Below are positions 4,088 to 34,907 of a DNA stretch of 64,000 nt, piece after piece (positions within the stretch are counted from its first letter, which is position 1; each line of letters opens with the position of its first letter). This DNA is from an uncultured virus (IMG/VR IMGVR_UViG_3300033069_000905) (taxonomy: Duplodnaviria > Heunggongvirae > Uroviricota > Caudoviricetes): positions 1 through 64,000 of the IMG/VR virus record IMGVR_UViG_3300033069_000905; one strand, 5' to 3'. The position numbers were made by a program, and so were the translations under genes. Under the pieces are notes generated by a model. The model was not told the DNA's origin. It worked only from the letters and a program-made list of their open reading frames with translations, and did no database searches.

Positions 4088-4627
4088 TTAAAAAAATTTA
4101 CTACGTCCTTTAAAAAAACCAGAGGGGATACAGCCCAACTCAGAACGCCACTTCTTATTAACTTTACCATCGGTAATCCAAAAAGACCCAAACTGCGAGT
4201 TGCGCTTACCCTTCTGGTGTTCAATGGCAATAAACGTATCTTTCCGCTTTTGCGTAGCCACTTCAGTATGTGCAGCAATCGTCCCCAAGTGCCTGAACTC
4301 ATGCAGTCGACTGCGCCCCTTAGCCCACATATCACCCATGTTATCTTGTTGAGTTCCAAGGAATAAGTGTTCGGGATTGCAACACAAGGGAGTATCGCAC
4401 TTGTGTAGGACAAATAACCCATCTGGTATTTCACCTTTAACTAGAAGCCAAGCTAGCCTGTGTGCCAATAGCATTACACGCTCTTGACTATTCGGCCTTA
4501 TAGTTACCTTACCGTAGCCTTTATTATTTGGTTGCCGCAACCAAAGCCAACAGCTATCTGTTTTCTGCACGTTAGACCAAAACCTAGCTATTTGTTTTTT
4601 ACTTATCCGCATGGTTCGACTCCACAA
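4088..4627 (-). CDS. HNH homing endonuclease
   Basis: CWLW..AHRLAW..VLHKCDTPLCCNPEHL..DN motif. Confidence 0.9.
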   Translation of the reverse strand: MWSRTMRISKKQIARFWSNVQKTDSCWLWLRQPNNKGYGKVTIRPNSQERVMLLAHRLAWLLVKGEIPDGLFVLHKCDTPLCCNPEHLFLGTQQDNMGDMWAKGRSRLHEFRHLGTIAAHTEVATQKRKDTFIAIEHQKGKRNSQFGSFWITDGKVNKKWRSELGCIPSGFFKGRSKFF

Positions 4628-4663: not shown

Positions 4664-4747
4664 TGGAAAATTGAGTAATCGAAACTCATCCCTTTCGGAA
4701 CCTTCTGTTTTCGAGGCAGAGGCTATACCCTGATAGCTTAATTTTCC
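4664..4747 (-). tRNA. tRNA-Ser(CGA), no encoded CCA
   Basis: TCTGC-CTCGAAA-ACAGA arm and long variable arm; 5' end overlapped by the HNH stop codon. Confidence 0.8.
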
Positions 4748-5145
4748 TTTTTAACTTTTTTGTCATGCTGCTGCTTCTTGACTTGGCACGACCTTCCACA
4801 ACACACATCAGCATGCCCGTTAGCTCTAACCCTGCACACGTAAACATGCTTCCTCAAGGTGAAAGCAGAACCGCACCAAAAACAAAAAAGAGACACCAGA
4901 ACAGGCGACTTAATCGGTAGGTTACTGTGGTGTGCATCATGAGAAGTCTTTGACATTTTCTCAAGGTTAAGGAAAACGTTATTGCGCTTGTCCTCATCTT
5001 TGTGGTGAATCAACTCGCCAGCAAGTACGACTTCACCTGTATTCAACCACCAAACCAAATGATGTTCATAGCAGTAGCGACCACGGTACCTCTTGCCCGG
5101 ATACCCTTCAGGCGCTATGACTAAAGTATACTCACCATTCTTCAT
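4738..5145 (-). CDS. HNH homing endonuclease
   Basis: YEHHLVWW..IHHKDEDKRNN..NL..H, followed by CFWC Zn finger. Confidence 0.88.
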   Translation of the reverse strand: MKNGEYTLVIAPEGYPGKRYRGRYCYEHHLVWWLNTGEVVLAGELIHHKDEDKRNNVFLNLEKMSKTSHDAHHSNLPIKSPVLVSLFCFWCGSAFTLRKHVYVCRVRANGHADVCCGRSCQVKKQQHDKKVKKEN

Positions 5146-5579: not shown

Positions 5580-5668
5580 TGGGGAGTCGTGTGGGGCTTG
5601 AACCCACTAACCTCTTTCGAGACACGGTTCACAGCCGTGTGGCGCGTCCTCTTTGCTCTTACGACTCC
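5580..5668 (-). tRNA. tRNA-His(GUG) with long variable arm
   Basis: 8-bp acceptor with G-1:C73, CACGG-CTGTGAA-CCGTG arm. Confidence 0.88.
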
Positions 5669-5732
5669 ATTGAAACTATGGCTGCTGGCGCGGCCAATTT
5701 GCTCTTCAATCACCATTGAAATTACTTGCAAC

Positions 5733-5807
5733 TGGTAGGCGCGCAGAGATTTGAACTCTGGTAAACCGGGTAAAAGCCGGTGATTCTCCCAATTGAATTA
5801 CACGCCC
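5733..5807 (-). tRNA. tRNA-Lys(UUU)
   Basis: ACCGG-CTTTTAC-CCGGT arm, CCA. Confidence 0.92.
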
Positions 5808-5866
5808 ATTATTCGGGGCGTTTGTCACTTTCTTCTGAACGCATGATAAATCTCCTAAAAATGGGT

Positions 5867-6202
5867 GGTGTTCGTAGTGTGCTACTACGCTAAAAGGAAT
5901 CGTTGGATTTAGCATCTCTGCCTTCCATTGATACTTGCCGTGTGGCTCTGTATGCCATTCGCTCTCAGTGGGTGCAACCCCCATTCCTTCAGCAGTTTGC
6001 GAGACTGCCTTGGCGTGATTTGCTTCGTCTTTCGATTGGTACTTGGAGTCCAGACCCCAAGCCGTTCTAAGAATCCACACAAACCCTATTGAACTTTTCG
6101 GCCAGTTAACTATGCCCTTAAACTGCCTATGTGTACCTGCATACAGCACTTGTCCTACTCTTTAAGGGATGGCTGCTTCTAAGCCCACCCTCTACGAACA
6201 CC
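5867..6202 (-). ncRNA. Structured RNA with a 23S rRNA H43/H44-like core, copy 1
   Basis: 11-bp terminal stem; GGTGGGCTTAGAAGCAGCCATC near the 5' end and AGCGTAGTAGCACAC near the 3' end; paralogue at 9643-9985. Confidence 0.8.
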
Positions 6203-6208
6203 GAAACT

Positions 6209-6508
6209 TTAAAAACTCAGACGATCATACATCGCCCAAACCTTCTTAGCCCCCGCAATAGCTTCCTTGTCGGCACGTTCAACGTTGTAGCTGACGTACC
6301 CCTTTTGATGAAGGATACGCAAAGGCGGGATGCCCAACTTGCGCTTGGCAAAGTATTCTTCGGGGCTGTAGTTCGCCTTCAGAAACTTCACAAAATGCTT
6401 GGCACTGGCCTTGGGGGATGCGTACTTGAACCGGGCCACGATTTCATTATTATGGCGAACGTACACTTCCTGACTACCTTCGATTACTATATTCCACATG
6501 ATCATCAC
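6209..6508 (-). CDS. Hypothetical protein
   Basis: ORF with GGAG RBS and an upstream TTGACA box. Confidence 0.65.
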   Translation of the reverse strand: MMIMWNIVIEGSQEVYVRHNNEIVARFKYASPKASAKHFVKFLKANYSPEEYFAKRKLGIPPLRILHQKGYVSYNVERADKEAIAGAKKVWAMYDRLSF

Positions 6509-6570
6509 TCCGTTGATTGACTATGGAGTAATGATAATCCAATCCCCACAGTTTGTCAAGGAGTATGTGA

Positions 6571-6647
6571 TGGTAGGACGTGTCAGGATCGAACTGACGA
6601 CCTATCGCTTAAGAGGCGAGTGCTACTACCGACTGAGCTAACGTCCC
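6571..6647 (-). tRNA. tRNA-Lys(CUU)
   Basis: Loop CTCTTAA, CCA. Confidence 0.92.
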
Positions 6648-6657
6648 ATTAAAACTC

Positions 6658-6732
6658 TGGTGCCCCTTGTCTGAATCAAACAGACGACCTATCGCTTACG
6701 AAACGATTGCTCTATCACTGCGCTAAAAGGGC
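6658..6732 (-). tRNA. tRNA-Thr(CGU)
   Basis: ATCGT-TTCGTAA-GCGAT arm, CCA. Confidence 0.88.
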
Positions 6733-6738
6733 GAAACT

Positions 6739-6813
6739 TGGTGCCCTTGGTCGGAATCGAACCCACGACCTCTCGCTTACCAAGCGAGTGCACTGCCACT
6801 GTGCTACAAGGGC
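6739..6813 (-). tRNA. tRNA-Thr(GGU)
   Basis: CTCGC-TTGGTAA-GCGAG arm, CCA. Confidence 0.92.
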
Positions 6814-6819
6814 GAAACT

Positions 6820-6893
6820 TGGAGCGGAAGACGAGAATCAAACTCGCGTATCTTGCTTGGCAAACAAGCGCTTTATCACTAAGCTACATCCGC
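6820..6893 (-). tRNA. tRNA-Gly(GCC)
   Basis: CTTGT-TTGCCAA-GCAAG arm, U73, CCA. Confidence 0.9.
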
Positions 6894-6899
6894 AAAACT

Positions 6900-6970
6900 T
6901 GGCACCCCGAGAAGGTTTCGAACCTCCCATTTTTGGCTTAGAAGGCCAAAATCTGTCCCACAGTCGGGGT
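6900..6970 (-). tRNA. tRNA-Arg(UCU), shortened D-arm
   Basis: TTGGC-CTTCTAA-GCCAA arm, CCA, 71 nt. Confidence 0.8.
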
Positions 6971-6971
6971 A

Positions 6972-7042
6972 TGGTGCCCTCAGACAGAGTTTAACTGTCA
7001 CAATCTGGTTTAGGAAACCTGATGCTATTCGATAGTGAGGGC
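6972..7042 (-). tRNA. tRNA-Arg(CCU), shortened D-arm and atypical T-loop
   Basis: Loop TTCCTAA, GCCCTCA/TGAGGGC acceptor, CCA. Confidence 0.7.
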
Positions 7043-7048
7043 ATAGAC

Positions 7049-7125
7049 TGGTACCCTTGGTCGGACTCGAACCGACAGAACCGCACCCCTCAAGCGCGTG
7101 TGTATGCCTATTCCACCACAAGGGC
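7049..7125 (-). tRNA. tRNA-Leu(GAG), short variable loop
   Basis: CGCGC-TTGAGGG-GTGCG arm, A73, CCA. Confidence 0.88.
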
Positions 7126-7131
7126 AAAACT

Positions 7132-7208
7132 TGGTGCCGGGTGCGGGAGTCGAACCCGCAAGATCAAGTTTTTGAAACTTGCACGTATGCCAATTCCGTC
7201 AACCCGGC
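7132..7208 (-). tRNA. tRNA-Leu(CAA), short variable loop
   Basis: CAAGT-TTCAAAA-ACTTG arm, CCA. Confidence 0.9.
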
Positions 7209-7214
7209 GTAACA

Positions 7215-7302
7215 TGGCGGTTAGGTAGGGGTTCGAACCCTAGTGCCCTTTCGGACTCATTGTTTAGCAAACAAGACGCTTTAGCCACTCGCGCACCTAA
7301 CC
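7215..7302 (-). tRNA. tRNA-Ser(GCU)
   Basis: Loop TTGCTAA, long variable arm, G73, CCA. Confidence 0.9.
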
Positions 7303-7310
7303 TTAAAACA

Positions 7311-7394
7311 TGGCAGAGAGATACAGAATCGAACTGTCACCCTTTCGGATGGACTACCTTTCCAAGATAGTTTGCTTCCAAAGCTCATCTCTCT
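7311..7394 (-). tRNA. tRNA-Ser(GGA)
   Basis: CTATC-TTGGAAA-GGTAG arm, long variable arm, CCA. Confidence 0.85.
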
Positions 7395-7400
7395 AAAAAC

Positions 7401-7475
7401 TGGAAGGGGTGGTAGGAATCGAACCTGACTAACCTTGGTTCAAAGCCAAGTATGCATCCATTGCATATCACCCCA
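7401..7475 (-). tRNA. tRNA-Gln(UUG)
   Basis: CTTGG-CTTTGAA-CCAAG arm, CCA. Confidence 0.85.
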
Positions 7476-7494
7476 CTCGACTATACAGTAATCT

Positions 7495-7572
7495 TGGTGC
7501 ACCCTCTAGGAATCGAACCTAGTTCTACAGTTCTTCAAACTGTCGCTGAATCACCAGACTAGCTCAGAGCGC
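7495..7572 (-). tRNA. tRNA-Phe(GAA)
   Basis: ACAGT-TTGAAGA-ACTGT arm, CCA. Confidence 0.9.
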
Positions 7573-7575
7573 AAA

Positions 7576-7727
7576 TACGTAGGAAGGTCTTACAGGGTTG
7601 CGCCCTGCTCACCTTCTTGTCAGCACAGCATTAAGCTTTGCATGTTAGGGCGTCGACCCCCACATGAAAACTGACCGTACCCCATCGACCTCGTGGGCCA
7701 CGCACGTTCCTTCCGTGATGCTACGTA
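7576..7727 (-). ncRNA. Candidate structured RNA between tRNA-Cys and tRNA-Phe
   Basis: Terminal TACGTAG/CTACGTA stem and internal hairpins; fills the spacer almost exactly. Confidence 0.45.
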
Positions 7728-7730
7728 ACT

Positions 7731-7805
7731 TGGAGTGTCCCCCCGGAATTGAACCGGGCTATCAGGGTTTGCAATCCTGCACATCGGCCTCTCTGTCAGG
7801 GACAC
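7731..7805 (-). tRNA. tRNA-Cys(GCA)
   Basis: Loop TTGCAAA, U73, CCA. Confidence 0.9.
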
Positions 7806-7841
7806 AGTTGAAACTACCTGTCTGTACGTTAGCACACACAG

Positions 7842-8342
7842 TTAAATTTTTATCCCCGCAACGTACTCTTTGTTCTCAAGGGCAAACTTGACCCCCATCG
7901 AAAACACGTCATCCGTGTAGTCACGCAGATTCTCATAATCCTTCTTGAGCCAGCGCATGTACAGCGCACGCTTCAAATCCTGCTCGGGGCTGTTTCGATA
8001 CTGCTCATCCCCACCTTCATAAACCTTGGACTGCCAGTACGCACCGTGACCCATGTGGGTATGCTTCTCAGTGGTGACCATGATCCCCACTTTTTGCATG
8101 ATGCCTTGCTTTTTGGCTTTCACGCAAATCGACCCCCAACAATCCCGCCAACCCTTGCCATTTCCGGGTGTTGTGCCCTTGCGAGCAAGGAAAGAAACGA
8201 GGACTTGTGCCGATGTAAAACGATAATGGAGTTTTGCGTAGGCATACCAGAAGCGTAGGGCTTCATCAACAATCTCGGGGGGTACGCTAGCTAAAGCATT
8301 CTCAATACCTTCGGATGTGGCTTGTTTCTGTTCGGGGGACAT
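7842..8342 (-). CDS. Hypothetical protein
   Basis: 166-aa ORF with AGGAG RBS. Confidence 0.7.
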   Translation of the reverse strand: MSPEQKQATSEGIENALASVPPEIVDEALRFWYAYAKLHYRFTSAQVLVSFLARKGTTPGNGKGWRDCWGSICVKAKKQGIMQKVGIMVTTEKHTHMGHGAYWQSKVYEGGDEQYRNSPEQDLKRALYMRWLKKDYENLRDYTDDVFSMGVKFALENKEYVAGIKI

Positions 8343-8403
8343 GTTGACTCCTGTGGGTATAAATACCTAAGACCATCCCGCCACTAAGACTGGGGAAATT
8401 AAT

Positions 8404-8464
8404 CGGGGAACAAACAGCTAGTCGGATTTTTCACCGAAAGAAGAACGACTAACCAACACCACCG
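8404..8464 (-). ncRNA. Y-RNA-like stem RNA, copy 1
   Basis: CGGTGGTGT...TTGTTCCCCG closing motif shared by four copies. Confidence 0.55.
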
Positions 8465-8469
8465 AAACT

Positions 8470-8546
8470 TGGTTGCTTGTGTCGGATTTGAACCGACGAC
8501 CTGTGCCTTATCAAGACAATGCTCTGCCGGACTGAGCTAACAAGCA
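8470..8546 (-). tRNA. tRNA-Ile(GAU)
   Basis: Loop TTGATAA, CCA. Confidence 0.9.
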
Positions 8547-8556
8547 ATAAATAAAT

Positions 8557-8620
8557 GCGGGAACAAGCGGTAACCGTGTGATTTCACTAAGATAGAAGTA
8601 ACGGTAACCATACACCACGC
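8557..8620 (-). ncRNA. Y-RNA-like stem RNA, copy 2
   Basis: GCGTGGTGTA...CTTGTTCCCGC. Confidence 0.55.
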
Positions 8621-8652
8621 AAATCTGCTACTGGGGTGATCCTTCTATGAAC

Positions 8653-8791
8653 ACAGGAACAAGCCCCCACGTAATTCTGTAAATACAACTGCTGACCTTT
8701 AGTGATTTTGAGGCTTTCCTAGCCCCCACCAAGGTTCTATGCTTTGATAAAATTTTGATTCTAGTAGAACCGGCACGAAAGCACACACCGT
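8653..8791 (-). ncRNA. Y-RNA-like stem RNA, copy 3
   Basis: ACGGTGTGT...CTTGTTCCTGT with a larger loop domain. Confidence 0.45.
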
Positions 8792-8903
8792 AAAACTGTC
8801 GCATGATCCCCCCGAACAGAAGTTGAAGAACAGTCTGTTCAAGGGAACCCCACGTTTACCGTATGCTCGGGGAACTACTTAGGCTTCTGGCCTTTGTTTA
8901 ATT

Positions 8904-9026
8904 CTGGGAACAAGCAACAACGAAATTTTTAGTGTCCTAACCACTAGACGACAGCCCTTACGAGCCGATGGGATTCGAACCCACGTTACTTCATTGGCAT
9001 TGAGGAAATCGTTATTTACGCCACAG
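8904..9026 (-). ncRNA. YrlA-like Y RNA with a circularly permuted tRNA-like domain
   Basis: CTGTGGCGTA...CTTGTTCCCAG stem enclosing a T-arm (GTGGG-TTCGAAT-CCCAT), a closed stem, then a D-arm (GTCTAGTGGTTAGGAC). Confidence 0.7.
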
Positions 9027-9030
9027 AAAC

Positions 9031-9108
9031 TGGTTGCGGGTACAGGGAGTCTAACCCTGCTGTTAATGGGATATGAACCCATTGTGTAAGACGTTTCACT
9101 CACCCGCG
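9031..9108 (-). tRNA. tRNA-Met(CAU), initiator-like
   Basis: C1:A72 mismatch, ATGGG-TTCATAT-CCCAT arm with three G-C pairs, CCA. Confidence 0.85.
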
Positions 9109-9548
9109 AAACTTTTTTCCAAATAGGCCAGCAAACTCTCCATGTGCTGTTTAACACTCTCGTAAGAATCCCCTAGCCTACCTAAAACTGTATTACAACG
9201 CATGCACAAGACGCCTCTAACTTTAGACGTGGTGTGGCAGTGGTCTAGCACAACAGAGACAGTGGAACCGCAGCTTTCACAAGCCCCAGAACTGCGCTCT
9301 ATTGCTTCTTCTACATCCGCTAACGGAACACCGTGCCGCCAAGCGATTTCTTTCAGTCTGTTGGCTGTTTTAAAACGAGCAACAGACGCTACCTGCTTAT
9401 CCTTGTTCTTTGGGTACCACACAGTACGCACGTAGGTATTATGGCAGTCTTTACATTTACTAGCGTACCCACGCTTTGAACTCTTGTCTTTGGAAAAGCT
9501 AGCTAAAGGCTTGCTTTCTTTACAACTGCAACATAGTAAGTGTGTCAT
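9096..9548 (-). CDS. Endonuclease VII-type HNH endonuclease
   Basis: CESC..VLDHCHTTSKVRGVLCMRCN motif and N-terminal CxxC repeats. Confidence 0.9.
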   Translation of the reverse strand: MTHLLCCSCKESKPLASFSKDKSSKRGYASKCKDCHNTYVRTVWYPKNKDKQVASVARFKTANRLKEIAWRHGVPLADVEEAIERSSGACESCGSTVSVVLDHCHTTSKVRGVLCMRCNTVLGRLGDSYESVKQHMESLLAYLEKSFAGE

Positions 9549-9588
9549 TGCATACCCCCACGGGTATCATAACACAACTAGCGAAAAA

Positions 9589-9626
9589 GGTTATGAGCCT
9601 GTCTGGTAACCAACAACCTCCTCGCC
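9589..9626 (-). pseudogene. 5' part of a tRNA with CAU anticodon
   Basis: GGCGAGG..GGT-TGTTGGTT-ACC..ACAGG-CTCATAA-CC, truncated just after the loop. Confidence 0.7.
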
Positions 9627-9642
9627 AAACTTTTTACAACAG

Positions 9643-9985
9643 TGTTAGATGCGTATTCTTGGTGTGCTGTCACGCCAAAAGGGATCGTGGGGATTACCGG
9701 CAACTTCCCCTTGATACTAGCTGTGTGGCCCTGTACGCCCATTCGTTCTCAGGGAGTGCTACTCCCATTCCTTCAGCAGTTTGCGAAGCTGCCTTGGCGT
9801 GATTTTGCTTCGTCTTTCGGCTATCTGGCCTAACGCCAGCCTCCCTAAGAATCCACACAAAACCCTATTGAACTTTTCGGCCTGAATGATGCCCTTCTCA
9901 GCCTATGTGTATCCGCATACAGCACTTGCCCTACTCATTAAGGATGGCTGCTTCTAAGCCCACCTCCAAAAACACGCATCTAACA
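9643..9985 (-). ncRNA. Structured RNA with a 23S rRNA H43/H44-like core, copy 2
   Basis: About 20-bp terminal stem; GGTGGGCTTAGAAGCAGCCATCC ... GGCGTGACAGCACAC. Confidence 0.8.
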
Positions 9986-10048
9986 GTGTTTTACTAATTA
10001 TATAAAAGCTCCCCCGATTTGTCAATGGGTATTTGCAATTACTTTCAT

Positions 10049-10124
10049 TGGCACCCCCTGACGGCCTCGAACCGCCTACCTTCAGTTTTGGAGACTGACA
10101 CACGTCCACATGTGCTTAGGGGGC
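10049..10124 (-). tRNA. tRNA-Trp(CCA)
   Basis: TCAGT-CTCCAAA-ACTGA arm, G73, CCA. Confidence 0.88.
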
Positions 10125-10205
10125 AAATCTAATAAAACTCTCAGGCAGCTTGCACACTGCCTTTCCCGGCACTGCTGCTGTGCAAGTCGCAATGACGGAG
10201 TATTC

Positions 10206-10283
10206 TGGTCTACCTGCTCAGATTTGAACTGAGGTTATGCCTGATCCCAAATCAGGGGCCATACCAGACTAGGCGACAGGTAG
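10206..10283 (-). tRNA. tRNA-Pro(UGG)
   Basis: CCTGA-TTTGGGA-TCAGG arm, C1:G72, CCA. Confidence 0.92.
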
Positions 10284-10291
10284 ATAAAACT

Positions 10292-10375
10292 TGGTGCGAG
10301 TGGGGGGAGTCGAACCCACCACGAATTAACGGCGGCTTCTAAAACCGCTGCGGCTACCAATTACGCCACACTCGC
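10292..10375 (-). tRNA. tRNA-Leu(UAG)
   Basis: GCGGT-TTTAGAA-GCCGC arm, CCA. Confidence 0.9.
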
Positions 10376-10475: not shown

Positions 10476-10547
10476 TGGTGGAGAATGACGGTAACGATCC
10501 GTCCCTAACTGATTGCAAATCAGTTGTTTAGCCCATCTATATCCCCC
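10476..10547 (-). tRNA. tRNA-Ala(UGC)
   Basis: G3:U70, ACTGA-TTTGCAA-TCAGT arm, CCA; 5' end overlapped by the HNH C-terminus. Confidence 0.85.
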
Positions 10548-11013
10548 AATACTTCATCACAGTGTTGCGACTAATACCTAACTCTCTGGAAATACTTCTA
10601 GTCGACCCACCAGAAATTCTAAGCAACCGCACTTTTTCCTTCATATCTTCGCTAAGGCGGCATCTTCCTGATGTGCTGAGCGCTGAACACCTTTTTGAGC
10701 AATAGATATGTTTTGACCCATCAGAAATAACTCTGGTATTTCGGTCAAACGTATTTCCGCACCTACGGCATACAAATCTAGCAATGGTGTGCTGTGTGTT
10801 GTGGTGGCGGATATGGTCACCCTCAAGCATCAACTCCAAGTTACTAAATTCATTGTTAGTTGGGTCTTCGTCTTTATGGTGCAAAACGTAACCATCTGGA
10901 ACAAGTAACCCCGTAGACAACCACCACACTAAATGGTGTTCTAAAATTCTATTACCGTACTGGTAGATCGTTCCGGGGTAATTCTCAGGGGCGGGTACAA
11001 ATATATAACTCAT
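10537..11013 (-). CDS. HNH homing endonuclease with Zn finger and HTH
   Basis: LEHHLVWW..LHHKDEDPTNN..NL, CRRC, ISRNTVMKYW. Confidence 0.9.
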   Translation of the reverse strand: MSYIFVPAPENYPGTIYQYGNRILEHHLVWWLSTGLLVPDGYVLHHKDEDPTNNEFSNLELMLEGDHIRHHNTQHTIARFVCRRCGNTFDRNTRVISDGSKHIYCSKRCSALSTSGRCRLSEDMKEKVRLLRISGGSTRSISRELGISRNTVMKYWGI

Positions 11014-11612: not shown

Positions 11613-11663
11613 TGGTGGTGGGTGAGGGAATCGAACCCCCTATGTCTAGCATACCACTGTTTT
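11613..11663 (-). pseudogene. 3' half of a tRNA (Tyr-like)
   Basis: Long variable arm TATG-CTAGA-CATA, T-arm, ACCCACC-A-CCA; the HNH ORF runs into it. Confidence 0.75.
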
Positions 11664-12050
11664 AGACCTACCCCTACGAGTAGCACCATATACTAATGGT
11701 GGCCTCTCTTTTTCATGTAATTCCAAATGACAGTTAGAGCAAAGCAAGATACACTTTTTAGCTTCGGCCAGTGCTACTTCGTATTTATTCCTAAGTAAAT
11801 CAGACACACCACGTTCTTTGTTAGGCTCGTGGTGATGAAACTGTAGAACTTGTAGGGATTTACTGTATCCGCAGACGCTACAACAACCGCCAAAAGCATC
11901 AACAAGACGGCGCTTATTTTCTCTAGCTTTAACTTGCTTACCCGCGCCGTCGCAACGCTTGCACTGAGAACCTAGACCGTCCAGCGTAACGGCGTTCTTA
12001 TAAAACGCTTCCGAAGGAAGCTCTTGCTTGCAGGATGTGCATATTTTCAT
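11646..12050 (-). CDS. HNH endonuclease
   Basis: CSVCGY..LQFHHH..KCILLCSNCHLELH; probable start MKICTSC. Confidence 0.9.
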   Translation of the reverse strand: MKICTSCKQELPSEAFYKNAVTLDGLGSQCKRCDGAGKQVKARENKRRLVDAFGGCCSVCGYSKSLQVLQFHHHEPNKERGVSDLLRNKYEVALAEAKKCILLCSNCHLELHEKERPPLVYGATRRGRSKTVVC

Positions 12051-12056
12051 AATTAC

Positions 12057-12085
12057 AGAATACTGCACTCTGTAAAGAATGTCAA
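12057..12085 (-). promoter_or_regulatory. sigma70 promoter, probably giving a leaderless HNH mRNA
   Basis: TTGACA-N17-TATTCT, 6 nt before the ATG. Confidence 0.65.
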
Positions 12086-23254: not shown

Positions 23255-24508
23255 TTAGGTATAGTTTGTCAATAGTTTTGAATACTTCTTCACCTTGGGA
23301 TCGTCCGACACCACACCCTTTTCAGTTGCGTACAGACTGGCAGGAACCAGCTTTGATGGGGCGTCGTTGCGGTAGAACGCCCAACTGTCTGCGTGCTTTT
23401 TTGTCTTGTCAAAGTTACTCTCGTTATTAGTCATCCCCAAACAAATCTGAGGATTAACCAGCCGCCCCCTGTCTGGTGTGCCATCTTTCTTCTTTTTTCC
23501 TACGTTAGCCCACCGTAGCAAAGAGCGTCCCGCAGATTCATATGGGGGCACATGCATAAAGACAGCCCGTGTAGAAAATTGGTGACGATGGAAGGTCTGT
23601 ACAACTCTGGAATCATCTTGGCTCATCGTAGAGTCATATACCGTATTGATATGCAGTTTTCTGGCTTGCCGTAACAGACGGGTCACAAGATAGTGCGCTT
23701 CCTTGTGAAAAAGGTGGGCTTTTTCTGGATCGTAATCAGGGAGCATACTTTTCACTATGTCGCTGTCAATCACCAGTTGTTTGTTCCTGTCGTACTCTTT
23801 AAGACCCTTCTCGTCTAACCCGCCCTTACCTGACCCTGCTCTACCCCCGATGATGGTAAAGGTAGGCTCTTTCCCTTTTTCGGGTAAAAATCGGGAAATA
23901 TCCCCCATGTATTCTTTTATTAGATCGTTATGAACCTGAGTCCGCTCGGATGTGTAGGTTTTTTCATCACCATCCTTGGTGTAAAACTTGGCTGTTATTT
24001 TTCCATTGGCAATATCGTCCTGCAACTCATTTTGCTTGGCTACAAAATCGTTGTAATCTTCCTTGGAAAGAATTTTACTGGCTAACGCATAGCCCCGTTT
24101 CATCCTGTCCATAGAAGACATCTTGGCGTAAGGATCAATCTTCTTTTTAGCAAACGATGCCGCTGAAAATCCTTCGGAAGCAAACTCCCCACCACCGGGG
24201 TTTCCTTTAGGAATACGAGGTTGATCTTTGCTTCCCTTCACTACAGAGTTTATGCGTGTAGCAAGGTTGGGTTCATACGTTAAATCTTCATCGGCATAGG
24301 GGTAGGTGTGGTCGTAAGCCCCCATCAAAATTAGTGTGGGGACACCCTCTGGAAAGGCTTCGCATGTCGCCTGTGCGGGATGATACCAACGGCAGGTTTG
24401 GCACTGGCTGTCTAGGGACTCCCCGTATGAACTCTCATCATCCACACGCCCCATGACACGCTGCTTTTCACTTATCGGTTCTTTTTTGAAAAGTTTAGAG
24501 AAAATCAT
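23255..24508 (-). CDS. Fusion of a Cys-rich immunity-like domain and a zeta-toxin-like kinase
   Basis: CQTC..CEAFPEGVP..DH; QPRIPKGNPGGGEF; GGRAGSGKG, IDSDIVK, YDST. Confidence 0.8.
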   Translation of the reverse strand: MIFSKLFKKEPISEKQRVMGRVDDESSYGESLDSQCQTCRWYHPAQATCEAFPEGVPTLILMGAYDHTYPYADEDLTYEPNLATRINSVVKGSKDQPRIPKGNPGGGEFASEGFSAASFAKKKIDPYAKMSSMDRMKRGYALASKILSKEDYNDFVAKQNELQDDIANGKITAKFYTKDGDEKTYTSERTQVHNDLIKEYMGDISRFLPEKGKEPTFTIIGGRAGSGKGGLDEKGLKEYDRNKQLVIDSDIVKSMLPDYDPEKAHLFHKEAHYLVTRLLRQARKLHINTVYDSTMSQDDSRVVQTFHRHQFSTRAVFMHVPPYESAGRSLLRWANVGKKKKDGTPDRGRLVNPQICLGMTNNESNFDKTKKHADSWAFYRNDAPSKLVPASLYATEKGVVSDDPKVKKYSKLLTNYT

Positions 24509-27500
24509 TTCTTTGGTTCCTGTGTGTAGCCGATTAAGTCAAGGTCAATGGTGTATGAGTACGGGCCGTAGCTAGACGTATCATTGCGCTGTATTCCACG
24601 AATCAAATACGTTGCCCCTTTGTTCAGCATAACCTCACGCTCACTGGAACAAGTCGAGTGAGTATCTATCCACAACCCCTGTGAAATATCCTTGGCGGCT
24701 CTGATGTGAAGCTTAAGATAGCCTGACTGGTCCCCCGTATTAGTAACGGACACGCCGCAGTCCTGATCATACGACGTTGAACTTATCCCCGGCTCATGAT
24801 AAACCTTACCCACACAAGCTTGAAGCTGTTCGTCTGTCAAATTGTTCATTTCTGCTCTGGTGTCGTTAGGAAGCCCCATCGCCTTCCAAAACCACTTCTG
24901 CGGCATATTCCGCCCAAGCTTAACATCAACCCCCAAAGATTGACCGTCCATGGCTTTGGATAAAACATCCGCTAGATCAGTAGTCGTTCCTTGTGCCAGA
25001 TTCTTGTTAACGCCTTTGTGTCCAGACCCAGTATAGCTTGTGAAAGCGGAACGTTGCGATGGTGTAAGAGATTTCCACAAAGCATCCCCAACCGCTTTTG
25101 CTTGGTTAAACTCGTCGCTTCCTTTAGGTGCCCATTTGCAATTAATTTCACCGGAATCATATTTCTGTGCAGCGGCACCCAAGTCGCCCAGCAGCTTCAT
25201 GTTAGCCACTGTTTTTTCAGCAGCACCCTTCGACCTTCCGAAAGCGTCAATCTTCTCGGCTTCTGAAAGCAGCATGCTATGCTTTGCCATGATGTTCAAA
25301 GCGTTCATGTTAGCGGCTTTAGTTTCTGGGTCGTCCTCACCCTTTAAACCGCTCTTCATGAAGTAGTCGTGACTTGCCGCCGCTATTTCTTTCATGGCAT
25401 CGTCTTTTTGTTTTTTAACGAAAGCCGCAGAATTAGCTTTACCTGATTCAAACAACGTACCGATAGTATTCGAAGGCACACCCGCAATAACCGCTTGCTT
25501 GGCGTTCGTGACCATCATATCTTTCAGGTAGTCTTCGTTGTCGGGGTCAATATTCTTCTTTGACGCTTCAGCACTCCATGCCGCAACAGAATCCACGTAA
25601 TCCGATGTGGCTTTTGCTTTTTTATCGGCAGCGGCCTGTCCACTGTTGTCCCATAGAGATTGGGCTTTACTGTTCAAGTCGCTAGATGAGCTACTAAAGA
25701 AACTCTTGTCATAGCCCAAATTGGCTTTCATGTGGTCTTTTAGCGTATCCCACACTTTGTAGGATGCGAGCACATCAGGGGCATTTTTATCCCCACCATT
25801 CTCATGACGAATAGTATAGTAAGCCAACCCCAACTTCTCGTTAAGGGCTTCGGCTTCGGTCTTGTCCGTGGGGAGAACGTCAGGCAATTTGGGTACTTGT
25901 GTTTTGCTTGCCGTGTTAACGCTATCCCCCACTGCGATGACATCGTTCAATTCTTTTGGCATTTCCAATGCAGCAACCGTTCCCGTATTAGCCTTGGCTT
26001 CTTTTTTGTTTGCCGCACCAATCCACTTCAATGCCGTGCCACTGCCGTACTTTGCGTCCGCATCGGACAATAGGCTTGAAAACGCTGCGGCATGCTGTGG
26101 GGATGTTGGGTTTGCAATTAATGCCTTAGCCGCAGCAAGTACCGACTTCTTCATCTTGGCTGTTGCTGCTTTTACGGCTTTGGGGTCTACTGGAGTTATT
26201 GGTGCTGGTGAACTCTTTCCCTGAGCTAACTGCTCAATATGCTGCGCCAACCAGTAGTTGTACGTGGCTAAACCAAAACTAGCATTAGCTGTCTTGGCGT
26301 ACACAGGTATCGCCTGATTTGTGGCGTATGCATTTTTAACTGCTGCGTCGTAAGAATCACCCAAAGACTTTTTGCACTCCGCAGCAGTCTTCCCGTTCTG
26401 GTCAACTGTGTCGTCTGACGGAATAACAAGACTATCCGTGTCTGCTAGGTGCTTTGATGCATACCCTTCACCATATAGGTTATTGTACTCAGTAACCTTA
26501 CTGGCAAAAATAATCATATCTCTGATCTTAGCCCCACTTGCGCCTAGCTTATTACCTGCATCAAGCAGAGCTTGGGTAGGGCTAGATGTAGTTGGTGTAG
26601 GTGCCGTCGTTTTAGCTTCTTTATCCAAACTTTCAATATGCTGTGTCAGCCAATATTGATGCATCCCCGTACCGTAGCTCTTATCCACATTAGAAAGCTG
26701 TGGGTAATCTTCGACATCGCTAGAATGAAAAACCAAACTCGACACAGACGAGTCGTAGTTATCCTTAATTATTTCCTTCCATGCTAGTGGGGTGGTTCCG
26801 TTGACACCACTTACGTCCATGTCATTGGGGATTTTTAAGTTTTTAGCTTCTTTGATGTAGGCAGAAGCAGCACCCTCCCCGTAAATGCTGTTGAACATCT
26901 TAACTTTTTTTGCAAAATCCACAGCATCAGCTACTTTCGCCCCTGTGGCAGCGAGGGTGTCGGATGCGGCCAGAAGGTAATCTTTATCTTCTTGAGTAGG
27001 CTTTGGTTTTGAACCCAAAACATCGGGCTTGTGCCCCGTCAGCATGTATTTTGCCGTGCCGTCCCCGTAGGCCGCATCAATCGTTTTTGTAGTGCTGCTT
27101 ATGGCAGCTACAGCTTCGGGGGATGGGTTATCTAAATAATCCAGATTTTTCCCCTGTAGCATTTTCTTGTCAGCATTAAAATCCTTAACCCAACCCTGAA
27201 CAGTATCCACGCCATACTTGGCGTTCATAGTCTGTTCTATAGGTTTGTGTTCTGGAACCATGTTTGCAATGTAGGAATTGATATACTTCTTTTTATCTTC
27301 GGCTTTTTGGTCTACAGGCTTAGGCGGATTACCTCCGTAGGCGTCTGCCCACAGCTTCTTAGAGTTGAATTCATCAGCCCACAGGCTTGATGTTCCCTTG
27401 CCAAATAGCTCGTCAACTTTGTTGATATGCATCCCCAAAGCCAAGGCGTTGTCTGCGTTGGCTTTCCCACCTTGTACCGCGTCCATCTTGGCAAAGAATT

Positions 27501-30267
27501 GTTTTTTGTGGTCTGCTTTAGCCTCGTCATAGGAGTCCAACAAGTCAGCACTTGCACCTTGCCCAAGGTACTTATCTACGTCTTGCTTCAGGCCAGTAAG
27601 TGCTTTAACCGCGTCTTTCTTTGATAGCTCAAGAATTGGATCAACTAAGCTATCTACTTTTGCTTGCGCGTCAACCAACATCTTGGTCGCTACCTCTTTA
27701 GCAAAATTAGAAAACTCAGGGTTCGGATTATCGTTACTGTGGTCGGTGTACTTACCATTAAGGTACTTCAGCCCTGCGTCTTTAACACCCGAAGCAAGGT
27801 CAATATCCGCTTTTGCCTTATCAATGATGTTCTGTATCAGGTCAGACTTGTCATCCAGTGTGTGCGGAATTCTCAGCGCGGCTAGGGCGTCGGCTTTAGT
27901 GTCGGTTAGGTTATATTCCTGCTTCCCATAATCGTAACTTTTCGCTGTGGCGGCTTGACCAACAGCTTTGATGTTTTCTGTCATCCACGTTGTAGCCGTG
28001 CCATCCCCGTACTTCGCGTCAATGTTTTTCTTCATCTCTGCAATAGCACTCTGCTGACTGGCATCAGGGTTCGCGTAGTTAAGAATGCTAAGGTAAGACG
28101 CTTTTACATTTTCTTTTACAGCGGCATCCGCATGCATCCCCTTAATCTTTTCGGCAATCCACGAGTTAGCTGTGCCGTCGCCATACTTCTTGTCGATGTC
28201 CAATTTCATCTGCATCAACTTAGGATCAGCCTCTCCCTTGGGGCTGTCTGGCGTGCTATCTATGGCTTTGAAATAGTCTGACTTATCCTTCGCCAGCATC
28301 ATACCGTCAGGCGAAGTTGCGAGGGGCTTGGCAGTGGTCGCAGTGTCATACGCAGCAATAGCCTTATCCGAATACCCTGCCCCCATAGACGCATCAAGTG
28401 AAGCCTTAGCCCCATTAAGCATGGCCTGTGTGTCGGGTGTCGGTGCTGCTTTGTGGTCGCTGTAGGCATTGGTCATGTAGGCCAATTTACCTGTGTTACC
28501 TTTGCCTTTGGCGTCATTAACAAAATCGGAGAAGGTTTTAGGTTCAACCTGCTTGTTCTTGGCGTTGTACTCTTTCAGCCACGCCAGCGTAGTCCCTGCC
28601 CCGTAGGTATCGTTAATCTCCTTGTGGTTATCAGCTAGTTTTGCTGACGCCTCTTTGTCATTAGGGTAAGCTTTCAGGTAATCCAGACCACCAAAGAAAT
28701 CTTTCTTCTGCGCTTCTTTTTCCGCTTCTTTATCCTTAGCCTGACTATCCACCAAATTGTTCTTCAAGGCATAGTAAGCCGCTAGCGCTTTGTCGGAGTA
28801 CCCAACCCCCATCGTCGTGTCGAAGTTTTTCTTGGCTTCAAGGAAATCAGAGTAGTAGGTCTGATTGTTAGGCATCGTCATGTGGGCGTTGTAGCTGGTC
28901 GTCAAATCAACCAACTGCTGCAAACCGTCTTTAGCCTTGGCCTCGGAAGAAATGTCGGAGAACGTTTTTGGTGATTCTGGTTTCACTTCCACAGCGGGTT
29001 TTGGTGCGGGAGCAAGTTTCTCAAAACCGGGAACATCAGGCGGGGCAACCTTCTCCATGTTCTTGTTAGCCTTCATGGATGAGAATGCCAGCTTACCCGT
29101 CTTGACCGCTTGTTTTAGGTCGTCTTTGTTTAGCCCGTTATATATCGCCCCGGTGTTGTAGTAGTATTTATAGGCGTTCGCCGCGTCCTTGTATTCTTTG
29201 TAGGCGTCGGAATCCTTGGCTTCATGCTGTTGGTGCTGAACCTGAGCATGAGCAATTACTGAAATAGATAGCAGGGTTTTACCGTTGGCAATCTTTGCGG
29301 CATTGGTAGCTTTCCCTGCTTCAATCGCCTTGTTAGTCTCGTTTTCGTCAGCATACTTCGCAGCAGCTACGGCATCAGAAACAGCATTGTAGTAGGCTGT
29401 GTTCTGCGTGCCCATATGCTCTTGATGAGCCAATTCCTCTGCTGCGTCATGTATGGCCTTAAGCTGTGCTACCTTCTCAGCATCGTGGTTTTCTTTAACT
29501 ACTTCTTTTTCCTTTACAGCATCGGCAGGAAGAACCCCATAGCTCATGGCTTTGTTTAGGTCTTTTTCGGCTTTGTTTTTTAGCTTTTTGTACTGCGCCG
29601 AATCCTCCCCAAACTTAACTTTGGCTTCTTCCGCCAGCGCTGAATTCTTTTTGTGGTCTTCCAGTTTTTTAGCCGCTTGCTTCTTGTTCTGCAAGGCGAT
29701 AGCCGACTTCATGGTAGAGGCAATGTTCTTTTCCTCTTGCGCTGTGAGCGGTAGGCCATGCTTTTTCTTCAGCCACATGCTCAGACCTTGTGTGCTGAGT
29801 CCTTTGGCTAGTTCTTCCTTGCTCATCCCACCAAGATCAGACAGCGCGTCAACGTGGTTCGCAATGTTCCCTGCTAGAATTTTTGCGTTGGTATCGGTAG
29901 GCTTCCCCCCGTCCTGTTTGATGTACTGATTCAGCAGCTTGGCGCTCTTTTCAAGCCCTGCCTTGTGGTGTGCAATCAAATCTTCAGGGCTGACATCAGG
30001 CGCTGTGGGTTCCTTCGGCTTGTTGACTGCCATAGAATTCACTAGGGAAGTCTGACCATCAGAATAAACGAATGGTTTTTCCTTGGTTTCCTGTGCTACT
30101 TCACCTGTCGTATCTTTCGGGGCAAACTGTCCCCCCTTATGCCCTTCGGGGTCAGTGTATCCAGCGGGAAAATGCTTTTCCTCTTTGCTCAATAGCGCAG
30201 AAAAAGGTGTCTTGGGGGTTTTGTTGGACATAGTTTTAGCTGTCCCACCAAGCAGAGAAGAATACAT
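24505..30267 (-). CDS. Large virion protein with a C-terminal ADP-ribosyltransferase (R-S-E / VIP2-like) domain
   Basis: YTGSGH..VNKNL, LGRN, ISSTS, SEREVML; repeats of IDxKYGxGTA. Confidence 0.82.
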   Translation of the reverse strand: MYSSLLGGTAKTMSNKTPKTPFSALLSKEEKHFPAGYTDPEGHKGGQFAPKDTTGEVAQETKEKPFVYSDGQTSLVNSMAVNKPKEPTAPDVSPEDLIAHHKAGLEKSAKLLNQYIKQDGGKPTDTNAKILAGNIANHVDALSDLGGMSKEELAKGLSTQGLSMWLKKKHGLPLTAQEEKNIASTMKSAIALQNKKQAAKKLEDHKKNSALAEEAKVKFGEDSAQYKKLKNKAEKDLNKAMSYGVLPADAVKEKEVVKENHDAEKVAQLKAIHDAAEELAHQEHMGTQNTAYYNAVSDAVAAAKYADENETNKAIEAGKATNAAKIANGKTLLSISVIAHAQVQHQQHEAKDSDAYKEYKDAANAYKYYYNTGAIYNGLNKDDLKQAVKTGKLAFSSMKANKNMEKVAPPDVPGFEKLAPAPKPAVEVKPESPKTFSDISSEAKAKDGLQQLVDLTTSYNAHMTMPNNQTYYSDFLEAKKNFDTTMGVGYSDKALAAYYALKNNLVDSQAKDKEAEKEAQKKDFFGGLDYLKAYPNDKEASAKLADNHKEINDTYGAGTTLAWLKEYNAKNKQVEPKTFSDFVNDAKGKGNTGKLAYMTNAYSDHKAAPTPDTQAMLNGAKASLDASMGAGYSDKAIAAYDTATTAKPLATSPDGMMLAKDKSDYFKAIDSTPDSPKGEADPKLMQMKLDIDKKYGDGTANSWIAEKIKGMHADAAVKENVKASYLSILNYANPDASQQSAIAEMKKNIDAKYGDGTATTWMTENIKAVGQAATAKSYDYGKQEYNLTDTKADALAALRIPHTLDDKSDLIQNIIDKAKADIDLASGVKDAGLKYLNGKYTDHSNDNPNPEFSNFAKEVATKMLVDAQAKVDSLVDPILELSKKDAVKALTGLKQDVDKYLGQGASADLLDSYDEAKADHKKQFFAKMDAVQGGKANADNALALGMHINKVDELFGKGTSSLWADEFNSKKLWADAYGGNPPKPVDQKAEDKKKYINSYIANMVPEHKPIEQTMNAKYGVDTVQGWVKDFNADKKMLQGKNLDYLDNPSPEAVAAISSTTKTIDAAYGDGTAKYMLTGHKPDVLGSKPKPTQEDKDYLLAASDTLAATGAKVADAVDFAKKVKMFNSIYGEGAASAYIKEAKNLKIPNDMDVSGVNGTTPLAWKEIIKDNYDSSVSSLVFHSSDVEDYPQLSNVDKSYGTGMHQYWLTQHIESLDKEAKTTAPTPTTSSPTQALLDAGNKLGASGAKIRDMIIFASKVTEYNNLYGEGYASKHLADTDSLVIPSDDTVDQNGKTAAECKKSLGDSYDAAVKNAYATNQAIPVYAKTANASFGLATYNYWLAQHIEQLAQGKSSPAPITPVDPKAVKAATAKMKKSVLAAAKALIANPTSPQHAAAFSSLLSDADAKYGSGTALKWIGAANKKEAKANTGTVAALEMPKELNDVIAVGDSVNTASKTQVPKLPDVLPTDKTEAEALNEKLGLAYYTIRHENGGDKNAPDVLASYKVWDTLKDHMKANLGYDKSFFSSSSSDLNSKAQSLWDNSGQAAADKKAKATSDYVDSVAAWSAEASKKNIDPDNEDYLKDMMVTNAKQAVIAGVPSNTIGTLFESGKANSAAFVKKQKDDAMKEIAAASHDYFMKSGLKGEDDPETKAANMNALNIMAKHSMLLSEAEKIDAFGRSKGAAEKTVANMKLLGDLGAAAQKYDSGEINCKWAPKGSDEFNQAKAVGDALWKSLTPSQRSAFTSYTGSGHKGVNKNLAQGTTTDLADVLSKAMDGQSLGVDVKLGRNMPQKWFWKAMGLPNDTRAEMNNLTDEQLQACVGKVYHEPGISSTSYDQDCGVSVTNTGDQSGYLKLHIRAAKDISQGLWIDTHSTCSSEREVMLNKGATYLIRGIQRNDTSSYGPYSYTIDLDLIGYTQEPKK

Positions 30268-33743: not shown

Positions 33744-34286
33744 TCAAACACGATACTTCCTAATGGTGTTACCACTGACACCCAAAGCCAAGGCTATGCC
33801 AGAAGTGGCGACACCGCTGGCGTGTAGTCTTTTTATTTCAGCTACCACCGTGTCGGACAGACTTTTATAGGAACCCATATTTACATTGCCCGAACACGAA
33901 CGAGAACAGTAACTAGGTTTTCCCAAATGCGTGTGCTTGTACGCATGACTTTTTGATCGTACAAACGCTAGACCACACTTTTTACAGGTTAGGTGAACCA
34001 ACTCAGCAGGGTTATCAGCGACGTACTTCTCTCTATTGGCCTTTGCACTGAGTATTTGAAAGTTCTCTAGTCTATCATCAAGTTTATCCCCGTTTACGTG
34101 GTCAACTGTCTCATCACGCAGCATAACCCTACCTAAGTGGACGGACATTAGGTACTTAGCATAAGACAATGTGAGTCTTTCCCTGCTTCCGGGTTTAACT
34201 AAGCACGCCATTCTACGTTTTTCTTTCTTGTGGAGAACAACGTAGAGTCTATACTCTTGGTACGGATAGTCAGCTTGGGTAGGCAT
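33744..34286 (-). CDS. HNH homing endonuclease with Zn finger and HTH
   Basis: VDHVNGDKLDDRLEN, CKKC, GVSGNTIRKY; similar to 177-719. Confidence 0.88.
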   Translation of the reverse strand: MPTQADYPYQEYRLYVVLHKKEKRRMACLVKPGSRERLTLSYAKYLMSVHLGRVMLRDETVDHVNGDKLDDRLENFQILSAKANREKYVADNPAELVHLTCKKCGLAFVRSKSHAYKHTHLGKPSYCSRSCSGNVNMGSYKSLSDTVVAEIKRLHASGVATSGIALALGVSGNTIRKYRV

Positions 34287-34403: not shown

Positions 34404-34907
34404 TTACTGTACGTGCTGATACGACTTGTTGGCAAGAACATTATGTATTACGTGCCTACCAACACCAAAAATTCTACCCCACTCTGACGCCATACCGTAC
34501 TTTACTGGCAAAGAACGTAAGTGTCTCACTTGGTCATCCGTAAGCTTAGAAGCCGCTCTCCTAGCTGTTATACTATTAAAGCGTAGTAACTTAAGCTTCT
34601 CCAAGGCACCTTCCTTACCGTACTTCTTTACCATGCGATCCCACGGTGTAGGGTTACCGTCAGCTAACGCATCAAGACTGTTCTCTTTATACGTACCCCA
34701 ATACAGGTGCTTAGGGTTACTGCATTTACCGTTACTACAAGCGTGACAACAGCATACGCCCGTAGCTATATCGGTATCTAGCACGTAAGCCAGTATTGCC
34801 CTATGCTGCGTTGAACTACCACCCCTCTCAATACAAGGGGAAGCTAAATCTAGGTGTGCTTGCCTAGCTTCTTTTGGAAGCTTTATGTATTCAGACACAA
34901 GAATCAT
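34404..34907 (-). CDS. HNH (His-Cys box-like) endonuclease
   Basis: CCCHACSNGKCSNPKHLYWGTYKEN and C-terminal HTH. Confidence 0.85.
   Translation of the reverse strand: MILVSEYIKLPKEARQAHLDLASPCIERGGSSTQHRAILAYVLDTDIATGVCCCHACSNGKCSNPKHLYWGTYKENSLDALADGNPTPWDRMVKKYGKEGALEKLKLLRFNSITARRAASKLTDDQVRHLRSLPVKYGMASEWGRIFGVGRHVIHNVLANKSYQHVQ

Follow-up and report, generated by a model that had tools for sequence, protein, structure and literature searches.

The GTPase-associated centre of 23S ribosomal RNA (rRNA), the uL11- and thiostrepton-binding domain, has a closed unit of 58 nucleotides (nt) as its minimal uL11-binding form. Ribosomal-protein (r-protein) operon leaders, such as the L10 leader (RF00557), imitate an rRNA site off the ribosome for r-protein binding; they act in cis within cellular mRNAs, exert feedback on their own operon and are loose mimics. 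Among trans-acting RNAs, 6S RNA is a promoter mimic that holds RNA polymerase, and CsrB and RsmZ are decoy or sponge RNAs. Phages are also known to carry non-coding RNAs near their transfer RNA (tRNA) genes: GOLLD and ROOL are large structured RNAs, often beside phage tRNAs, that are not rRNA mimics, and small stable RNAs other than tRNAs are encoded in the tRNA clusters of T5 and of T4 (species 1 and 2). Here we describe two RNAs, copy A (6202..5867, 336 nt) and copy B (9985..9643, 343 nt), both encoded on the minus strand among the tRNA genes of an uncultured Caudoviricetes virus. The window analysed comprises the first 64,000 nt of the 132-kb viral record IMGVR_UViG_3300033069_000905, which is 78% complete. 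Matches to rRNA covariance models, comparison with E. coli rrlH and covariation across a phage family strongly support reading each copy as a split, stem-closed, free-standing mimic of the GTPase-associated centre.

The two halves of each RNA rebuild E. coli 23S positions 1051-1108, with the split between 1089 and 1090, and comprise the top of helix H42, helix H43 capped by the loop UUAGAAGCA, the turn at 1082-1086 and a hexaloop-capped H44. Copy A begins and ends in an H42-like closing stem of 11 consecutive base pairs (bp; 6202-6192 with 5877-5867, in register from 1055:1104 outward). Its 5′ half (6191-6158, E. coli 1056-1089) carries H43 and its loop, the 1082-1086 turn, G1087, A1088 and G1089. 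A 266-nt insert follows (6157-5892), with a base helix, a long-range helix, hairpins and a GNRA-capped hairpin near its 3′ end, and the 3′ half (5891-5878, 1090-1103) supplies the top of H44 with the hexaloop GUAGUA. Anchored on G1063 at 6184 and on 1090 at 5891, E. coli positions 1055-1089 correspond to 6192-6158 and 1090-1104 to 5891-5877. Copy B (anchors G1063 at 9959 and 1090 at 9676) has a closing stem of 20 bp (9985-9966 with 9662-9643), into which G9966 and G9967, the equivalents of 1056 and 1055, are drawn. This stem is shifted by one base relative to the family register, can be extended past a single C.C mismatch as far as 9990/9638, for a helix of 24 bp, and at 20-24 bp would be long enough for an RNase III substrate. 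The 5′ half of copy B (9965-9934) has a 1081-1083 turn one base shorter than that of copy A, a deletion also found in a family member on another contig; its 257-nt insert (9933-9677) is homologous to that of copy A, and its 3′ half (9676-9663) ends H44 in the hexaloop GUGACA.

The copies align with 84% mean column identity and several 1-nt insertions or deletions, and their closing stems are unrelated. An earlier note on this DNA had placed two elements of about 340 nt at 5867-6202 and 9643-9985, with different long closing stems around a shared core, and both the positions and this architecture hold. It had also given a single motif string for both copies and had put the break in the motif at the H43/H44 junction, to be rejoined by folding. 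The two-half motif is indeed present, although the string is inexact for copy A, whose 1081-1083 turn has one base more than that of copy B; the split is likewise real, but it lies inside the 5′ strand of H44 (1089/1090) and not strictly at the junction. Exactly two copies of the core occur in the 132-kb record when up to 2 mismatches are allowed. Both also occur in a second viral contig of 178 kb, 100% identical to those of the window, which thus adds no variation. The minimum free energy of copy A is -105.8 kcal/mol (z -2.06 against shuffled controls) and that of copy B is -131.7 kcal/mol (z -4.87). The single sizeable open reading frame (ORF) over copy A (5706-6149, minus strand) was rejected as a coding explanation: it also overlaps a tRNA-Lys gene and has no counterpart in copy B. 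Coding constraint is ruled out because the copies differ by 1-nt insertions and deletions.

An 18-base run in copy A, GGCTTAGAAGCAGCCATC, is identical to E. coli 23S rRNA (rrlH, read in NC_000913.3), and the E. coli H43-H44 string quoted in the earlier note agrees with the same entry. Rfam 15 was scanned at gathering scores on the window and at E≤10 on 5600-10300 and 5855-6215. The bacterial large-subunit (LSU) model LSU_rRNA_bacteria (RF02541) aligned 6151-6190 (minus strand) to model positions 1098-1144 with 22.4 bits (E 4e-6 for the record), below its gathering cut-off of 50 and therefore short of a full-length LSU match; LSU_rRNA_archaea aligned 6146-6190 (minus strand) with 18.9 bits (E 0.0011). 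The LSU models reach the 5′ half only. The earlier reading as a GTPase-centre mimic with a large insert is borne out by these matches, by the rrlH comparison and by the helix-preserving covariation described below. Its suggestion that the RNAs might belong to GOLLD or another known tRNA-associated class fails, since no Rfam 15 family other than tRNA and LSU matches either copy even at E≤10. Neither GOLLD (RF01998) nor ROOL (RF03087) matched at gathering score in the window or at E≤10 in 5600-10300 and 5855-6215, and the scan that the note had proposed as a check thus returned no full-length match and a partial LSU one. The L10 leader (RF00557) and other r-protein leaders were also without a match at E≤10, and no r-protein gene lies among the neighbours. 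EBv-sisRNA-1 (15.2 bits) and YrlA (27.5 bits at 8910-9001, outside the copies) were set aside as chance-level matches.

Relative to the 23S centre, the phage RNAs share the helices, the H43 loop, the 1082-1086 turn, the G1087-C1102 pair and A1088; a GUAAUA-type H44 hexaloop is common to both, and the same pairs covary. They differ in being free-standing genes among tRNA genes, each with its own closing stem, in carrying an insert of 28-370 nt between 1089 and 1090, and in having G.A or A.A in place of the 1090:1101 pair. GOLLD and ROOL resemble them as large, structured, tRNA-adjacent phage RNAs, without a match in sequence or structure. In contrast to the r-protein leaders, the phage RNAs are near-exact copies located between tRNAs or downstream of a promoter of their own, and no particular gene consistently follows them. 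The action proposed below would resemble that of 6S RNA and CsrB/RsmZ, in which an abundant RNA titrates a protein by imitating its target; this likeness is one of analogy, and both target and fold differ.

Covariation was assessed in 88 unique sequences of a 5′-anchored family set. Pair 1055:1104 is kept in all 88 (GC 73, AU 14, CG 1), and 1053:1106 is paired in 81 and uses all four Watson-Crick types. At the base of H43, 1057:1081 is paired in 86 of the 88 (AU 69, CG 14, GC 2, UA 1) and 1058:1080 in 87 (UA 38, GC 31, AU 13, CG 5). Across the turn, 1082:1086 is paired in 79 (UA 48, CG 25, AU 6); a slid-partner control for this last pair was confounded, as G1087 pairs with U or C. When the 5′ strand was given the 3′ strand of another member in 500 swaps, mean pairing was 54.0% for the closing stem (maximum 59.6%), against 91.9% with the true partners, and 54.1% for the H43 base (maximum 61.4%), against 98.3%. 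There is thus strong evidence that the closing stem, the H43 base, 1082:1086 and the base helix of the insert are kept by compensatory change.

Conservation at positions that the search patterns left free follows the fold of the domain. G1059, U1060 and G1062 are present in all 88 sequences, U1083 in 87, and G1089, A1101 and A1103 in 86 each. In a 3′-anchored set of 100 sequences, U1066, G1071 and C1072 are invariant, and A1069 is kept in 97, A1067 in 84 and G1068 in 80. In the H44 loop (n=88), A1095 is kept in 84 and A1096 in 70; no base is fixed at 1097 (U 51, C 26, A 10, G 1). In 86 of the 88, positions 1090 and 1101 are opposed as G.A or A.A; the A1090-U1101 pair, which we take to be native to 23S, is therefore replaced by the junction with the insert. 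We take U1060, A1088, G1071 and C1072 to be tertiary contacts of the 58-nt domain, and A1067 and A1095 to be contacts for thiostrepton and the factors. The fold core is kept more strictly than these two loop adenines, which face the factors if these contacts hold. Such a pattern fits a ligand that reads the fold. uL11 reads the fold and differs in that from thiostrepton. Of the partners that the earlier note suggested for a putative decoy or scaffold (uL11/uL10, translational GTPases, RelA or a ribosome-targeting toxin), uL11 best fits this conservation pattern, which lends a uL10 role no support.

The insert invariably leaves the domain after G1089, as a single U followed by a helix, a variable body, a return strand and UUU, after which position 1090 resumes. 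In the register adopted for the base helix, 88.4% of cells are paired over four base pairs, compared with 41-75% in other registers; in copy A, AGGA pairs with UCCU ahead of the UUU. The insert is predicted to form a fourth arm, which would turn the native three-way junction into a four-way junction. About a quarter of the family shares a hairpin at the 3′ end of the insert, GNCACCCCG-NAAN-YGGUAAGG, of which the window copies have a diverged form (in copy A, GGAAGGCAGAGAUGCUAAAUCC). Distant homologues of the window insert were found by local BLAST in five members (L046, L087, L031, L102 and L125), among the fetched loci only, and two exact insert 20-mers searched in viral contigs occurred nowhere but in the near-identical 178-kb contig. 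A consensus fold of both copies with the first four of these homologues predicts 43 pairs, 24 of them with compensatory changes. Besides the closing stem, H43 and H44, these pairs form four elements of the insert: its base helix, a long-range helix (GCUGUAUGC with GCAUACAG.GC in copy A), an internal hairpin and the hairpin capped by a GNRA loop. A central portion of the insert, about 100 nt long, is peculiar to the lineage of the window.

Both copies are members of a widespread family of phage RNAs, for which Rfam 15 has no model and of which we located no description; full-text literature searches, with subscription journals outside their coverage, found no published account of such an RNA. 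The family 5′ motif consists of the H43 base, the loop UUAGAAGCA, the 1082-1086 turn and then GAG, and the 3′ motif is RGCGUNNNAGCNC, the top of H44. Copy A fits the 5′ pattern exactly and copy B fits it except for the missing base in the 1081-1083 turn; the 3′ motif begins at 5891 in copy A and at 9676 in copy B. An exact 20-mer of the 5′ motif occurs at 17 viral-contig loci, two of them in the 178-kb contig, and a degenerate 5′ pattern at no fewer than 117. Among the matches listed for this pattern, one is a true 23S gene, 109 others have one 3′ motif 55-377 nt downstream, one has two 3′ motifs and 6 have none; two loci from Pseudomonas phages likewise have one 3′ motif each, 55-377 nt downstream. 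The converse search, with the 3′ pattern and the H43 loop left free, gave at least 119 loci that reduce to 109 unique sequences, 100 of which have an upstream 5′ core. Among the other 9, the stored upstream sequence is 302 nt in 7, 65 nt in one and the full 460 nt in one. Family loci align to E. coli 23S across only about 20-45 nt. The smallest members, three loci with a 28-nt hairpin as insert, are almost bare closed 58-nt rRNA domains.

The 5′ motif also lies in unannotated DNA of cultured phages: Pseudomonas phages pf16, UNO-G1W1, Astolliot and Milchi, Aeromonas phage 4_4572, Xanthomonas phages XacN1, XbC2 and XaC1, Cronobacter phage GAP32, Pectobacterium phage CBB, Serratia phage BF, several Erwinia and Yersinia jumbo phages and one Vibrio phage. 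Of the Pseudomonas phages, pf16 infects P. putida and UNO-G1W1 infects P. fluorescens. Short records among the matches are true 23S contaminants, and neither T4 nor T5 is among the 53 phage-collection records that match the 5′ motif. Across 185,579 cellular species genomes, the exact 3′ motif matched 74 times, 31 of them with a 5′ core and an insert and none of them a true 23S gene. These 31 loci are probably prophages or mis-binned phage contigs; the other 43 resemble chance 17-mers (about 139 chance matches expected by a hand estimate) and were rejected.

Association with tRNA genes is a general feature of the family. In 40 of 63 unique, fully flanked loci a tRNA gene lies on the same strand within about 700 nt, opposite-strand tRNAs alone occur in none of the 63, and in 29 the nearest tRNA is no more than 30 nt away. 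Most members abut tRNA genes, and release by tRNA processing is therefore implied. In the window, copy A lies 59 nt from tRNA-Lys(UUU) (5733..5807, minus strand, downstream) and copy B 63 nt from tRNA-Trp (10049..10124, minus strand, upstream). A sigma-70-type promoter with all 12 consensus positions (TTGACA, 17 nt, TATAAT) lies at 10025-9997 (minus strand), with 7 nt between its end and the extended copy-B stem; a hand calculation puts the chance expectation for that stretch at about 0.002 perfect matches. Ahead of copy A, an 11/12 promoter lies at 6559-6531 (minus strand), upstream of a 99-amino-acid (aa) ORF of no known family (6508..6209, minus strand) whose stop codon is 6 nt before the RNA. 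An own promoter is not a general rule of the family, as matches of at least 10/12 lie upstream in just 5 of the 63 loci, against 0 of 63 on the control strand.

Metatranscriptome run X19 contains a 284-nt contig without differences from 9651-9934, the interior of copy B. The contig breaks off at the border of the rRNA-like core, a point at which assembly graphs fork. It places the sequence in one RNA library and is not proof of transcription. Neighbouring genes have no contig cover in X19, which we gave no weight since lack of cover proves nothing. High depth at 6053-6203 and 9828-9978 in runs X10, X12 and X19 stems from 28-33-nt contigs common to true rRNAs and is no expression signal. Runs X10 and X12 are probably DNA.

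We propose, with a probability of roughly 0.45, that each copy encodes a stable non-coding RNA that acts as an off-ribosome decoy, with uL11 as the most likely ligand. For copy B, host RNA polymerase would start from the consensus promoter directly ahead of it; copy A would probably be transcribed from the promoter ahead of the 99-aa ORF. On this view the RNA would be made alongside the phage tRNAs or from a consensus early-type promoter. The closing stem would join the RNA ends into a self-contained 58-nt GTPase-associated centre, and the free RNA would offer a competing site to whatever reads this domain, most likely uL11, whose C-terminal domain would recognise the folded RNA. With uL11 or another binder held off ribosomes, the handling of translation GTPases and RelA may be altered during infection. 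RelA is not activated on ribosomes that lack uL11, and the phage might plausibly gain, among other things, a blocked stringent response. We favour an off-ribosome competitor because the unit is a closed uL11 domain, its fold core is strictly kept, and its production appears tied to tRNAs or a consensus promoter; uL11 as the ligand, the decoy action and the downstream effects are what we infer from these features.

Several observations weigh against this proposal. Some family members depart from the consensus at A1067 and in the H44 loop, and with the hexaloops GUAGUA in copy A and GUGACA in copy B the canonical 1095 surface may be missing, at least in copy B, which also has one base fewer in the 1082-1086 turn. 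The insert replaces the A1089/A1090 region of H44, with G.A or A.A at 1090:1101 in 86 of 88 sequences, and could clash with uL11. Titration would require very high RNA abundance, set against about 10^4 ribosomes per cell, and the evidence for expression is the one contig from one run, in which DNA carry-over is possible. No uL11 gene was found in the 132-kb record (78% complete), and any partner would hence be that of the host.

Other explanations for a copied GTPase centre were weighed against the same data. The RNA might instead lure away a weapon of the host or of a competitor that is aimed at H43/H44 (a toxin, a modifying or cutting enzyme, or a thiopeptide) and so keep ribosomes active, which would parallel the proposed role of phage tRNA arrays in making good the tRNAs that host defences attack and would suit a location among tRNA genes, other phage-borne spare parts of translation. 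A natural toxin for this target exists: Tre23 ADP-ribosylates 23S H44 near bases 1095-1098 and impairs the GTPase activity of EF-G (PMC8661411). H44 and its loop are retained in most members (A1095 in 84 of 88), yet the loop, which is the target of Tre23, is among the less conserved parts, as the spread at 1097 (U 51, C 26, A 10, G 1) illustrates. We know of no defence system aimed at the GTPase-centre domain, and thiopeptides penetrate Gram-negative hosts poorly, whereas many carriers infect Pseudomonas and enterobacteria. Overall, we consider a weapon decoy unlikely. Slightly less likely again is a scaffold for a mini-stalk of uL11 with uL10-bL12, possibly including a phage bL12-like protein, or a sink for EF-G, RelA or other GTPases, in which the variable insert would serve as a second binding platform. 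The insert is structured and partly conserved, and the window encodes a partial bL12-like protein, a 119-aa ORF (52870-53226, minus strand) that matches the bL12 C-terminal domain (PF00542) with 32.5 bits against a cut-off of 25.9. Phage proteins with L7/L12 domains are known and are described as entering ribosomes (bioRxiv 10.1101/174177). The window protein carries a GLGLKEAK motif and an N-terminal half without a family, but it covers only profile positions 11-36 of 67. PF00542 matched at E≤0.001 in 5 of 50 other RNA-bearing viral records, a count without a background rate, whereas 45 of the 50 had no bL12-like match and only 2 passed the cut-off; a bL12-like protein as obligate partner is thus neither supported nor excluded. 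uL10 needs features of lower H42, and the closing stems, free in sequence and length, conserve none of these.

It is improbable that the RNAs are merely structural or selfish passengers of the array that stabilise or punctuate tRNA transcripts or travel with homing-endonuclease cassettes. The array is full of HNH/EndoVII genes, the stretches with copy A and with an HNH gene are non-collinear in a related strain, and the 20-24 bp stem of copy B may resemble an RNase III site. For punctuation, though, any stable hairpin would do, and a passenger leaves unexplained why hundreds of unrelated phages, whose inserts are also unrelated, copy this one rRNA domain so faithfully, down to the bases of its tertiary contacts. 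The least probable explanation by far, that of functionless captured host 23S fragments or assembly contamination, draws on the 18-base identity with E. coli 23S and on the short rRNA-like contigs that pile up there in metagenome runs. It is refuted by the limited 23S alignment, which does not extend beyond about 30-45 nt, by pair covariation, including that of the closing stem, and by the swap control; moreover, the insert always sits at the same point and both copies recur in the 178-kb viral contig.

The surroundings of the two RNAs are those of a phage, as the gene content of the window confirmed. The minus strand carries 74 of its 85 candidate ORFs and all of its 27 tRNA genes, the same strand as both copies, whose neighbours are tRNAs, one HNH gene and one ORF of no known family. 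Six HNH/EndoVII homing-endonuclease genes lie inside the tRNA array (177-719, 4088-4627, 4738-5145, 9096-9548, 10537-11013 and 11646-12068) and two more outside it (33744-34286 and 34404-34907), eight in total, every one of them on the minus strand. In runs X10 and X12, contigs from a related strain join 5857 to 6209 and 9031 to 9623 of the window, and the stretch with copy A (5858-6208) and that with the HNH gene (9032-9622) are non-collinear with them. The copy-A stretch and the HNH gene beside copy B therefore vary between strains; copy B is retained in the related strain with one letter changed. A further joint in sequencing-run contigs, 5899 to 6149, was too short to be trusted and was not used. 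In the same related-strain contigs, tRNA-Lys(UUU) (5733-5805) is swapped for 542 other letters and 424 nt of the array (8474-8897) for 153 letters; the tRNA array is mosaic between strains.

Three other features of the minus strand were recorded. The stretch 8547-9034, 490 nt of the array without a tRNA call, gave the YrlA match already mentioned and a tRNA match of 20.3 bits at 8960-9025, both weak, and may contain a broken or unusual tRNA. At 6903-6970, an Rfam tRNA match of 30.6 bits is barely above the cut-off and is absent from the ARAGORN list. The 1920-aa ORF at 24505-30267 has no PHROG match at E≤1e-5.

Returning to the proposal of an off-ribosome decoy, its extension to the whole family is somewhat more tentative than for the two copies: many phage lineages may carry a highly expressed copy of the uL11 domain that would pull uL11 or another reader off host translation, with the insert as a second, lineage-specific module. 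If so, the stringent response that depends on RelA, or a defence directed against this rRNA site, might for instance be blunted, and the family would represent a new class of viral RNA that imitates part of the ribosome itself. Phage-encoded tRNAs are known, and some ribosomal proteins are supplied by a few phages; an rRNA functional centre copied to act in trans would be a new viral route into translation. The imitated domain is where elongation factors, control of RelA (via uL11) and thiopeptide antibiotics converge, and a natural high-fidelity decoy would serve as a ready tool for probing the GTPase-centre site. The size of the family and its occurrence in cultured phages, among them pf16, GAP32, CBB and XacN1, make the idea testable at the bench. 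To this picture the window adds that the insert can grow into a large structured domain, that one phage keeps two diverged paralogues, and that a consensus host-type promoter belongs to at least one of the copies.

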